A stretch of DNA of 64,000 bases from Escherichia coli (GTDB lineage Bacteria > Pseudomonadota > Gammaproteobacteria > Enterobacterales > Enterobacteriaceae): assembly GCF_003334315.1 (NCBI RefSeq), contig NZ_QOWR01000012.1, one strand, 5' to 3'. The notes beneath the pieces were generated by a model. It was given only the letters and a program-made list of their open reading frames with translations, did no database searches and was not told the origin of the DNA. Positions 12,054-36,624 of the stretch are shown piece by piece. The stretch's first letter is position 1. Each line of letters starts with the position of its first letter. The translations under genes were made by a program, and so were the position numbers.

Positions 12054-12464
12054 ATGAAGTGGCAACAACGTGTTCGTGTCGCAACGGGTCTAAGTTGCTG
12101 GCAGATTATGTTGCATTTACTGGTAGTGGCGCTGCTGGTGGTGGGCTGGATGAGTAAGACTCTGGTTCACGTCGGCGTGGGATTATGCGCACTGTATTGT
12201 GTCACGGTAGTGATGATGCTGGTGTTTCAGCGCCACCCCGAGCAACGCTGGCGTGAGGTGGCAGACGTGCTGGAAGAGCTGACCACGACCTGGTATTTTG
12301 GCGCAGCGCTGATTGTGCTGTGGCTGTTGTCCCGCGTTCTGGAAAACAACTTTTTGCTGGCAATTGCAGGGCTGGCAATCCTTGCCGGCCCGGCGGTAGT
12401 GTCTTTGCTGGCGAAAGATAAGAAGTTACATCACCTTACGTCTAAACATCGCGTACGCCGCTGA
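12054..12464 (+). CDS. ybhQ: Inner-membrane protein YbhQ
   Basis: 136-aa hydrophobic ORF. Confidence 0.8.
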
Positions 12465-13532
12465 CCCTGTCGTGGCCGTTATCACCAGTAGCGGCCACAA
12501 ACTATTCCACACAATATCCAGACTCGCATCCTTCAAATAAATCTGCTTGGTAATGTCCGTAAAGTGGCGAATAGGGTTAATCCACGTCAGGTTTTGCAGC
12601 CAAACTGGCATGTTTTCCACCGGCGAAACGTAACCGGAAAGGAGAATGGCGGGCATCATAAAGACAAACACGCCGATAAACGCCTGCTGTTGTGTCGAGC
12701 AGAGTGATGAAATCAACAGACCGAATCCCACCAGCGATAAACCGTAAATCACCATCGTAAAGTAGAACAGCGCCAGCGATCCGGCGAAGGGGATTTGATA
12801 CGCCCAGATACCAATCGCCAGCACAATGGTGGCCTGGAAGGTGGCGACAATTAACGCCGGTACGGCTTTGCCGATGAAGATCTGCCAGGTGGTGAGCGGC
12901 GAAACCAGTAGCTGATCGAGCGTACCTTGTTCACGTTCGCGGGCGACGGAAAGTGAAGTGACGATCATTACGCCGATAGTGGTGATCATGGCGATCAGCG
13001 ACGGCACCACAAACCATTTGTAGTCGAGATTCGGGTTATACCAGTTGCGTACTACCAGCTCGCTGTTGTTAGGTTTCGGTTTTCCTTCCAGCAGCTCCTG
13101 CTGATAATTTTTGACGATCTGTTGCAGGTAGTTGGCGGCAATCTGCGCACTGTTGGAGTTACGCCCGTCGAGGATCAACTGCAAAGGCGCGGTCTGGAAG
13201 GTATCCAGTTTGCGCGAGAAGTCAGCCGGGAAACGCACCAGTAGTAACGCCTTTTGTGTGTCGATGGTTGGGCGGATCTCCTGTGGGCTTTTCAGCAGCA
13301 GCACATGAGTAAAGGCGCTGGCGCGGGCAAAACGTTGGGTCAGCTCCACCGAATGCTCGCCGTTATCTTCATCGTAGATGGCGATGGTGGCGTTAGTCAC
13401 TTCCAGCGTGGCGGCGAACGGGAACAGGATCACCTGAATTAGCACGGGTAAAATCAGAATCGCGCGGGTTTGTGGTTCGCGCAGCAACGACTGCAACTCT
13501 TTGCGGATTAACGTCCATAAGCGATGAAACAT
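12426..13532 (-). CDS. ybhR: ABC-2 family exporter permease YbhR
   Basis: 368-aa membrane ORF. Confidence 0.9.
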
Positions 13533-13542
13533 GCTCTTCTCC

Positions 13543-14668
13543 CTAATCCAGCCGACGTTTGGTTTTCAGCCACGTCAGGCCGATAAACATCACCGCCGAA
13601 GCGATCAAAAACAGCACGTTTACCACCAGCACCACTGGAATATTCCCGGCGAGGAACAGGCTTTGCAGGGTGCTGACGAAATAACGAGCGGGAATAATGT
13701 ACGTCACCGCGCGGATCACCGCGGGCATACTGTCGATCTGAAAAATAAAGCCGGAAAGCATAATCGACGGCAGAAAAGCCGCGTTCAGAGCGACCTGAGC
13801 GGCATTGAACTGGTTGCGGGTTATCGTGGAAATCAGCAGCCCCATCCCCAGGGTACTGAGTAAAAACAGGCTGGAGATAAAAAACAGAATCAGCAGCGAC
13901 CCGCGATACGGCACGCCGAGAATAAACACTGACACCAGCATACACAGCAACATCGCCAGCATCCCGAGAAAGTAATAAGGGATCAGCTTACACAGCAGCA
14001 GTTCCGTGCGGGTAATCTCCGTAGAGAGCAGAGCCTCCATGGTGCCGCGTTCCCATTCTCGCGCCACCACCAGCGAGGTGAGAATCGCGCCGATGACCGT
14101 CATGATGATGGTCACCGCACCCGGGATAATAAAGTGCTGGCTTATCGCCGCCGGGTTAAACCAGTAGCGGGTTTGTACATCAATAAGCGGTTCAAAAGTC
14201 TGCCCGTTGTCCTCCGCTCGCTGCATTTGCCAGATCTGCCAGATCCCTTCGACATACCCCTGCACAAAGTTAGCGGTATTCGGCTCACTGCCGTCGGTGA
14301 TCACCTGAATCGGTGCGGTGGCGTTGGCGCGCTCCATCTGTTCCGCAAAATCCACCGGAATAACCACCAGACCGCGAATTTTCCCCGCCTGCATTTTGGC
14401 GATCAGTTCCTGACGGTTATCGCTGATGGTGGCGTCGATGTAGGGCGAACCGGTCATGGTGTGGGTGAAATCCAGCGCCGCTTCGCTACGCTGTTCCAGT
14501 AAAATCCCGACCCGCAGCTTGCTGGAGTCGAGGTTAATGCCGTAACCAAAAATAAACAGCAGTAGCAGCGGGATCACTACCGCAATCAGCCAGCTACTCG
14601 GATCGCGAACGATCTGCCGCGTCTCTTTAACGCACAGCGCCCGTACGCGACGCCAGGACAGGATCGGG

Positions 14669-14676
<8 letters not shown>
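13543..14676 (-). CDS. ybhS: ABC-2 family exporter permease YbhS
   Basis: 377-aa membrane ORF, paralogous to YbhR. Confidence 0.9.
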
Positions 14677-18067
<3,391 letters not shown>

Positions 18068-18080
18068 CGCACAGTCCATT

Positions 18081-18102
18081 CTTAATCAAATGATTGATTA
18101 AG
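18081..18102. promoter_or_regulatory. Perfect 9-bp-arm palindrome, candidate CecR (TetR-type) operator
   Basis: CTTAATCAAatgaTTGATTAAG, 14 nt upstream of the cecR start codon. Confidence 0.5.
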
Positions 18103-18295
18103 ATTATGACTCCATAGGGGAGTTGTCCAGTATGGCTAAGAATTTTAGCAACGCCAGTCACAGGGATAATTTATGCGCTGCGTCACAAAAACTGCTACAC
18201 TCCGCTCCCTCATGACATTGTGGTTTTTGTCATTTTCCTTTTCAGTATCTCCCTGAAAACTACACCGGTAACGGTCGGGGCGGTTCGGAGTAGTT

Positions 18296-19660
18296 ATGTC
18301 TTTCGATTCTTTGGGTTTAAGCCCTGATATCCTGCGCGCCGTTGCCGAGCAGGGTTACCGTGAACCCACCCCTATTCAGCAGCAGGCGATCCCTGCGGTG
18401 CTGGAAGGCCGCGACCTGATGGCTAGCGCCCAGACCGGCACCGGCAAAACAGCGGGCTTTACGCTGCCGCTGTTGCAACACCTGATCACTCGCCAGCCGC
18501 ACGCCAAAGGGCGTCGTCCGGTACGTGCGCTCATTCTTACCCCGACCCGTGAACTGGCGGCGCAGATTGGCGAAAACGTCCGTGATTACAGCAAATACCT
18601 GAACATTCGTTCGCTGGTGGTGTTTGGTGGTGTGAGTATTAACCCGCAGATGATGAAACTGCGTGGCGGCGTTGATGTGCTGGTGGCAACCCCGGGACGT
18701 TTGCTGGACCTGGAACATCAGAATGCAGTGAAGCTGGATCAGGTTGAAATCCTCGTCCTCGATGAAGCTGACCGCATGCTCGACATGGGCTTTATCCACG
18801 ATATCCGTCGCGTGTTAACAAAACTACCTGCGAAGCGCCAGAACCTGTTATTCTCCGCGACCTTCTCTGACGATATTAAAGCCCTGGCGGAAAAACTGTT
18901 GCACAACCCGCTGGAAATCGAAGTGGCACGCCGCAATACCGCGTCTGATCAGGTGACCCAGCACGTTCACTTTGTCGATAAGAAACGCAAACGCGAATTG
19001 CTGTCGCACATGATTGGGAAAGGGAACTGGCAGCAGGTGCTGGTGTTTACCCGTACCAAACACGGCGCTAACCATCTGGCTGAACAGCTCAATAAAGATG
19101 GCATCCGTAGTGCGGCGATCCACGGCAATAAATCGCAAGGTGCGCGTACTCGTGCGCTGGCTGATTTTAAATCGGGCGATATTCGTGTACTGGTGGCAAC
19201 TGACATCGCTGCGCGCGGCCTGGATATTGAAGAGCTGCCGCACGTCGTCAACTATGAACTGCCAAACGTACCGGAAGATTATGTCCACCGTATCGGGCGT
19301 ACCGGTCGCGCGGCTGCTACCGGTGAAGCGTTGTCGCTGGTGTGTGTTGATGAACACAAACTGCTGCGTGATATCGAAAAACTGCTGAAAAAAGAGATCC
19401 CGCGCATTGCGATTCCGGGCTATGAGCCGGACCCGTCAATCAAAGCCGAACCGATCCAGAACGGTCGCCAGCAACGTGGCGGCGGCGGTCGTGGGCAAGG
19501 TGGTGGTCGCGGTCAACAGCAACCACGCCGTGGGGAAGGTGGCGCAAAATCTGCAAGCGCGAAACCTGCAGAAAAACCGTCTCGCCGCCTCGGCGATGCC
19601 AAACCGGCAGGCGAACAACAACGTCGCCGCCGTCCGCGTAAACCTGCCGCTGCGCAGTAA
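18296..19660 (+). CDS. rhlE: ATP-dependent DEAD-box RNA helicase RhlE
   Basis: Q-motif, Walker [13 protein letters not shown] box, SAT; RG-rich basic C-terminal tail; 454 aa. Confidence 0.95.
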
Positions 19661-36594: not shown

Positions 36595-36624
36595 TTCTGC
36601 ATGGTTATGCATAACCATGCAGAA
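36595..36624. terminator. Perfect 30-bp palindrome downstream of rhtA (putative terminator or binding site)
   Basis: ttctgcatggttatgcataaccatgcagaa, 13-bp arms, 9 nt past the rhtA stop. Confidence 0.5.

Follow-up and report, generated by a model that had tools for sequence, protein, structure and literature searches.

A near-invariant palindromic core in the cecR promoter region of Escherichia coli, the probable operator of CecR

Genes and palindrome at the cecR/rhlE spacer

The window analysed here, a stretch of 64 kb of E. coli DNA taken at its full length, contains the cecR-ybhGFSR genes, the divergent gene rhlE and the 228-bp spacer between cecR and rhlE, in which the palindrome under study is located.

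12426–17393, minus strand: ybhG(hlyD)-ybhF-ybhS-ybhR, genes for the adaptor and the ABC exporter (coordinates converted from an identical, annotated E. coli record)
17396–18067, minus strand: cecR (ybiH), TetR-family regulator of 223 aa (annotation of the identical E. coli record)
18080–18103, no strand assigned: 24-bp E. coli palindrome, TCTTAATCAA-atga-TTGATTAAGA, with 10-nt arms and a 4-nt spacer
18082–18101, no strand assigned: conserved 20-bp core, the putative operator, reading TTAATCAATCATTTGATTAA on the cecR-sense strand
18163–18295, plus strand: conserved rhlE promoter-proximal block (GGGATAATTTATGCGC...) and leader of ~120 nt (Enterobacteriaceae alignment)
18296–19660, plus strand: rhlE, transcribed divergently from cecR; PMC12998191 reports its activation by CecR

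CecR carries a TetR_N domain (E=7e-14) and a CecR_C domain (E=5e-35), is identical to PDB entry 9i1x ('CecR') and also matches 1t33, a Salmonella homologue. Together with the ybhG(hlyD)-ybhF-ybhS-ybhR genes annotated after cecR, these domains bear out an earlier description of cecR, made from the sequence alone, as a TetR-family gene heading the ybhGFSR cluster, and the palindrome thus has a TetR-fold regulator with an N-terminal helix-turn-helix (HTH) as its immediate neighbour. The structure of the CecR dimer has been solved, and no structure of CecR bound to DNA exists (PMC12998191). An in-frame ATG at positions 18077–18079 on the minus strand adjoins the palindrome and would lengthen the cecR ORF to 227 aa. 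Since this ATG is not conserved outside Escherichia and is mutated in E. coli strain Ec-U10, the annotated start at 18067 is supported.

On the plus strand, positions 18080–18103 read TCTTAATCAAatgaTTGATTAAGA. The sequence-only reading had described a 22-bp palindrome with perfect 9-bp arms at 18081–18102. The letters of that interval (CTTAATCAAatgaTTGATTAAG) are as it gave them, but the symmetry runs one base further on each side and the palindrome is therefore longer than claimed. A repeat finder placed the arms at 18080–18089 (TCTTAATCAA) and 18094–18103 (TTGATTAAGA), 10 nt each, 100% complementary and 4 nt apart. The distance of 14 nt to the cecR start held: with the annotated start at 18067, the 22-bp version ends at -14 from the A of the ATG, and the palindrome lies 13–14 nt upstream of this start. 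Operators of the TetR type are palindromic or near-palindromic over ~15–30 bp, and perfect 10-nt arms around a 4-nt spacer have this form. Each half of the palindrome holds a tandem AATC-AATC. The repeat finder gave no second strong palindrome in the spacer, where two further inverted repeats fall in the rhlE leader, and no second core-like half-site was found between cecR and rhlE.

Chance occurrence was modelled with 100 dinucleotide-preserving shuffles of the 64-kb window, in which we counted inverted repeats whose arms measured 10 nt or more and whose spacer did not exceed 8 nt. The shuffled sequences contained 0.56 such repeats per 64 kb, which by arithmetic gives ~0.002 for a 228-bp spacer. 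The pattern TTAATCAA-N4-TTGATTAA has exactly one exact match within the window, and the other long palindromes of the window are mostly G+C-rich, terminator-like stems. One of the window's palindromes, perfect over 28 bp (TCTGCATGGTTATGCATAACCATGCAGA), occupies 36596–36623, shortly after the end of the rhtA coding region and towards dps. It is a possible terminator, and an IS1 element adjoins it in strain HS30-1. Two inverted 9-mers occur between bioD and uvrB, in the region upstream of uvrB (GTTATCCACtattcctGTGGATAAC at 531–555), and we take them to resemble DnaA boxes (TTATCCACA).

Conservation of a 20-bp core and its register with the predicted cecR promoter

A CecR protein scan over one genome per species yielded 80 loci, ranging from Escherichia to Kosakonia and from 73 to 99% identity, so that with the window 81 sequences were compared. 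The same block was present upstream of cecR in all 80 loci. When the 81 sequences were anchored on this block, the 20-bp core at 18082–18101 was near-invariant, with 1.94 bits per position versus 0.56 bits in both flanks, and from the cecR -35 element to the start codon the palindrome core was the sole strongly conserved block. The distance from the end of the core to the start codon is 12–16 nt in 80 of the 81 loci.

In 68 of the 81 loci the core is TTAATCAATCGATTGATTAA, a perfect uninterrupted palindrome of 20 bp and the consensus of the other genera. Seven loci, those of Escherichia plus one other, have the E. coli form, TTAATCAATCATTTGATTAA; the core centre reads TCGTTT in four Kluyvera loci, and single arm changes were seen in two loci. 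Escherichia departs from the consensus at the central four bases only (TCGA to TCAT). By this comparison, the ancestral form is a perfect palindrome of 20 bp, of which E. coli has a derived variant whose centre is no longer palindromic; the arms and 4-nt spacer noted in E. coli are the remnant of a 10+10 palindrome. The outer TC/GA bases, which lengthen the palindrome in E. coli, also occur in Citrobacter and Salmonella but not in other genera. On this alignment, the constrained unit is the 20-bp core at 18082–18101 and not the full 22- or 24-bp palindrome of E. coli.

Within the species, 5409 of 5424 E. coli genomes matched a 30-bp query over the palindrome at 100% identity, and a 60-bp query showed at least one difference in 1746 E. 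coli genomes. The two variants inspected leave the core intact, their changes falling at 18079 and 18102. A query of 1.1 kb spanning the site had matches in 5424 of 5426 complete genomes, where the annotated features were cecR, rhlE and hlyD (ybhG).

Across the same 81 loci, the core stands in a fixed register with hexamers that we predict to be the cecR promoter elements.

18092–18096, minus strand: predicted cecR transcription start at ~18094, inside the palindrome, placed from the -10 position
18101–18106, minus strand: predicted -10 hexamer TAATCT (TAnnnT), in register as TAnnnT in 81/81 loci
18124–18129, minus strand: predicted -35 hexamer, TGGACA in 72/81 loci, with a 17-nt spacer in 77/81

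The promoter assignment is a prediction based on conserved hexamers in a fixed register. A simple consensus promoter scan called no sites here, because the -10 hexamer TAATCT matches the consensus at only three of six positions. The last T of TAnnnT is the first base of the core, which in this way overlaps the predicted core promoter and start, as operators of this kind do. Given the fixed register, bound CecR would cover about -7 to +13.

CecR as the probable regulator bound at the core, and rival readings

The palindrome had been proposed, from its position and form, as an autoregulatory operator of the TetR type, and the near-invariant core overlapping a conserved predicted -10 element and start in 81 loci agrees with that proposal. 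The CecR (YbiH) binding site of E. coli K-12 is said to have been placed in the cecR/rhlE spacer by Yamanaka et al. in 2016 (Microbiology 162:1253; cited in PMC12998191, PMC5934670 and PMC6237786). CecR is described as a single-target regulator with its SELEX site at cecR (PMC5934670). PMC12998191 puts the DNA recognised by CecR in the spacer between cecR-ybhGFSR and rhlE, with cecR-ybhGFSR controlled negatively and rhlE positively; a reporter assay underlies the repression of the cecR operon, and antibiotic binding by CecR is reported as well. The single SELEX target, the recognised sequence in this spacer and the repression of cecR-ybhGFSR (PMC12998191, PMC5934670) speak for CecR as the protein that binds here. 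ChIP-exo data are consistent with the SELEX result and yield an AT-rich palindromic motif whose inverted repeats are 'separated by 7-nt' (PMC6237786). In the palindrome, the 7-mers TTAATCA and TGATTAA stand 6 nt apart. As the palindrome is even in length, repeats 7 nt apart (PMC6237786) cannot be symmetric about it. The letters of the published CecR box were not found in the full text of the papers searched, where matches to the palindrome, its half-sites or the core sequence were unrelated primers. With the same gene pair, the same spacer and a single site, the palindrome is very probably the published CecR site and would then be the footprinted sequence. The element itself is therefore already known, as a CecR operator mapped to this spacer, and the interpretation given to the palindrome from sequence alone is supported.

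We consider it highly probable (about 90%) that CecR has its operator in this palindrome and represses cecR-ybhGFSR through promoter overlap. The exact core also adjoins promoter elements of distant CecR-family genes (see below), which agrees with this reading. In the proposed mechanism, a CecR homodimer, possibly two, would bind the 20-bp core at 18082–18101 when inducer is absent. Since the core takes in the final base of the -10 element and the predicted start, spanning about -7 to +13, bound CecR would exclude or block RNA polymerase, and cecR-ybhGFSR would be repressed. A ligand bound at the C-terminal domain would make CecR let go of the DNA and would thereby lift the repression of the pump operon. 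The predicted promoter geometry fits repression by occlusion, in line with the reported control of the cecR operon.

CecR is named in the literature as a regulator with two functions, and the palindrome could also be an activator site at which bound CecR directly stimulates the divergent rhlE promoter. The rhlE operon was positively controlled in a reporter assay (PMC12998191), the spacer has only one SELEX site (PMC5934670), and it lacks a second core-like half-site as described above. The arrangement of the spacer speaks against such a role. The ~145 nt proximal to rhlE are highly conserved and the stretch towards the cecR promoter varies in length, so that between genera the operator centre lies 62, 78, 86, 91, 105, 115, 129, 138, 151 or 160 nt from the rhlE block. 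These steps are irregular and do not correspond to whole helical turns; a Class I-type activator would keep a fixed distance or one that preserves helical phase. In E. coli, ~86 nt would separate the operator centre from the predicted rhlE start downstream. Linkage points the same way: the core accompanies cecR in 81 of 81 Enterobacteriaceae loci, and the gene after cecR is a ybhG homologue in 80 of 80. A divergent rhlE lies upstream in 76 of these 80; the core is also kept in the other four, which have no rhlE in the 2.5 kb upstream of cecR (L044 Klebsiella pneumoniae, L061 K. spallanzanii, L073 Pluralibacter and L077 K. grimontii). Because the distance varies and the operator is kept without rhlE, activation of rhlE is not the conserved role of the site, and we conclude from the alignments that this role is control of the cecR promoter. 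Direct activation of rhlE from the palindrome is thus possible but, in our judgement, rather doubtful; rhlE activation may be real in E. coli, where it may be indirect, without being what holds the site in place.

Binding of the palindrome by some protein other than CecR, be it a nucleoid protein or a different regulator, with CecR binding elsewhere in the spacer, would suit an AT-rich site. Yet the palindrome is the only invariant block near cecR, a CecR-like or other TetR gene lies beside the exact core in 94 of 120 metagenome contigs (among the matches listed; see below), and the only other inverted repeats of the spacer belong to the rhlE leader, which makes this reading very unlikely. A nucleic-acid hairpin, whether an RNA leader, a terminator or a DNA cruciform, is highly improbable even though the palindrome has a folding energy of -7.8 kcal/mol as single-stranded DNA, with z = -4.7. 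An intrinsic terminator or RNA hairpin has a G+C-rich stem and a T-tract and lies inside a transcript; here the stem is AT-rich, the T-tract is absent and the terminator scan was silent, Rfam gave no family match for the site, and with the predicted start inside the palindrome a transcript would not hold both arms. Moreover, every arm position is fixed in sequence with no co-variation and the centre alone varies, a pattern that fits base-specific protein contacts. As for a chance palindrome without function, one might be expected in a shuffled window at the rate of ~0.56 given above, but invariance across genera and within the E. coli population, together with linkage to the regulator, leaves this reading a negligible probability, conservation having already refuted it. 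Chance, hairpin and terminator readings were accordingly rejected on conservation, the terminator scan and the shuffles, and the CecR operator is retained as the preferred reading.

On the rhlE side of the spacer, the rhlE block and its ~120-nt leader are almost invariant across Enterobacteriaceae. The inverted repeats of the leader pair 18185–18192 with 18223–18230 and 18258–18267 with 18286–18295. RNAalifold on the block and leader gave 27 pairs, only two of them with compensatory changes, and the cecR/rhlE spacer including the rhlE leader had no Rfam family match. In the K. pneumoniae locus L044, the place of rhlE upstream of cecR is taken by an ORF of 307 aa on the same strand.

The core beyond Enterobacteriaceae and its relation to known operators

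Metagenome contigs were scanned for the exact consensus 20-mer TTAATCAATCGATTGATTAA, and at least 120 contigs contained it (contigs among L082–L201; for example L118:7077-7096, L175:4098-4117, L107:4467-4486 and L198:5149-5168). Among the matches listed, a CecR-like TetR ORF flanks the core in 94 of 120 contigs, and 46 of these flanking ORFs are less than 60% identical to E. coli CecR. When the distant regulators were grouped by HTH sequence motif, two groups stood out.

Group 1 comprises at least 24 regulators of ~230 aa, 30–36% identical to CecR, on contigs of 58–70% GC. The one protein tested has a CecR_C domain (E=4e-42), YbhG-, YbhF- and YbhS/R-like genes come next in contigs long enough to show them, and a TTGACA-like hexamer abuts the core in many contigs. 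One group 1 protein is from Brucella/Ochrobactrum and is named 'DUF1956/CerR family'. Group 2 comprises at least 15 regulators of ~206 aa on contigs of 35–46% GC; the one protein tested has TetR_N and TetR_C_4 domains, with no CecR_C match reported. In the group 2 operon of contig L107, the TetR gene is followed by TolC, EmrA-like and EmrB-like genes. The core is followed by TTTTG in most group 2 contigs, giving TAATTTTG, which presumably matches the Bacteroidota -7 element TAnnTTTG. In both groups, identity to CecR is 41–55% in the HTH and 8–28% in the rest of the protein; a closer relative in the same alignment (L180) has 65% and 40%, respectively.

Three kinds of regulator thus have the exact 20-mer on their promoters: CecR_C-family proteins ~30% identical to CecR (Alphaproteobacteria of the Brucella/Ochrobactrum group and other high-GC contigs, ahead of YbhGFSR-like ABC pump genes), TetR_C_4 proteins (YsiA-like, low GC, with Bacteroidota-like promoters, ahead of TolC-EmrA-EmrB-like MFS pump genes) and enterobacterial CecR, for which E. 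coli has the derived centre. We lean somewhat towards the view that TTAATCAATCGATTGATTAA marks an old and widely reused pair of HTH and operator and not an enterobacterial peculiarity, in which one DNA-reading head would have been combined with different sensor domains and pumps.

An unbiased distant sample limits how far this extends. Among 11 CecR_C-family loci of 30–59% identity, drawn from 50%-identity representatives, the exact core was present in one and three more had it at 3–4 mismatches; the remaining loci of this sample had different AT-rich palindromes or none recognisable. With the exact core in only one of the 11 distant loci, we dropped the idea of a core common to the whole CecR_C family. 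In Providencia alcalifaciens, whose cecR orthologue (46% identity) has the same ybhG/F/S genes after it and a divergent DEAD-box helicase gene, no core was recognisable in the 290-nt AT-rich upstream region (L206:2711-3000), the best match having eight mismatches. On this sampling, the core is widespread but not universal.

The site shares features with several known operators. Like the operators of TetR (tetO) and of TetR-family repressors that bind as a single dimer, it is a palindrome overlapping the core promoter of regulator or pump genes and would be bound by a ligand-released homodimeric repressor of the TetR fold. The tetO core has 15 bp, whereas the CecR site has 20 invariant bp and a symmetry extending to 24 bp in Escherichia, Citrobacter and Salmonella. 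Operators of the QacR IR1/CgmR type are likewise long palindromes over the promoter and start of a drug-efflux gene, and IR1 of QacR has 28 bp. Two dimers, as in QacR IR1/CgmR, could be accommodated by the length of the CecR site and by the half-site repeats inside it, a likeness and not membership of that type. The operators of distant CecR_C ('DUF1956/CerR') regulators before TetR-HlyD-ABC-ABC2 operons have the exact 20-mer, which lies 0–35 nt from the regulator start; these regulators are 27–37% identical to CecR, CecR_C was confirmed by Pfam for the one tested, and YbhG/F/S/R-like genes follow. In the distant high-GC contigs, a TTGACA -35 abuts the core and the operator fills the spacer and -10 region, whereas the enterobacterial core is at -10/+1. 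Other members of the CecR_C family have different AT-rich palindromes.

For E. coli, these results are a confirmation only of an operator already mapped. They add a precise definition of the constrained unit (a core of 20 bp that tolerates change at its centre), a promoter geometry, predicted here, that would explain the repression, and an argument against rhlE activation as the conserved role of the site. The reuse of the exact core across lineages is the only part that might be new. If such cross-phylum reuse is true, it would provide a natural set of regulators that share a single DNA specificity and span many ligand specificities, which would be of some interest for studies of efflux regulation and for sensor building.
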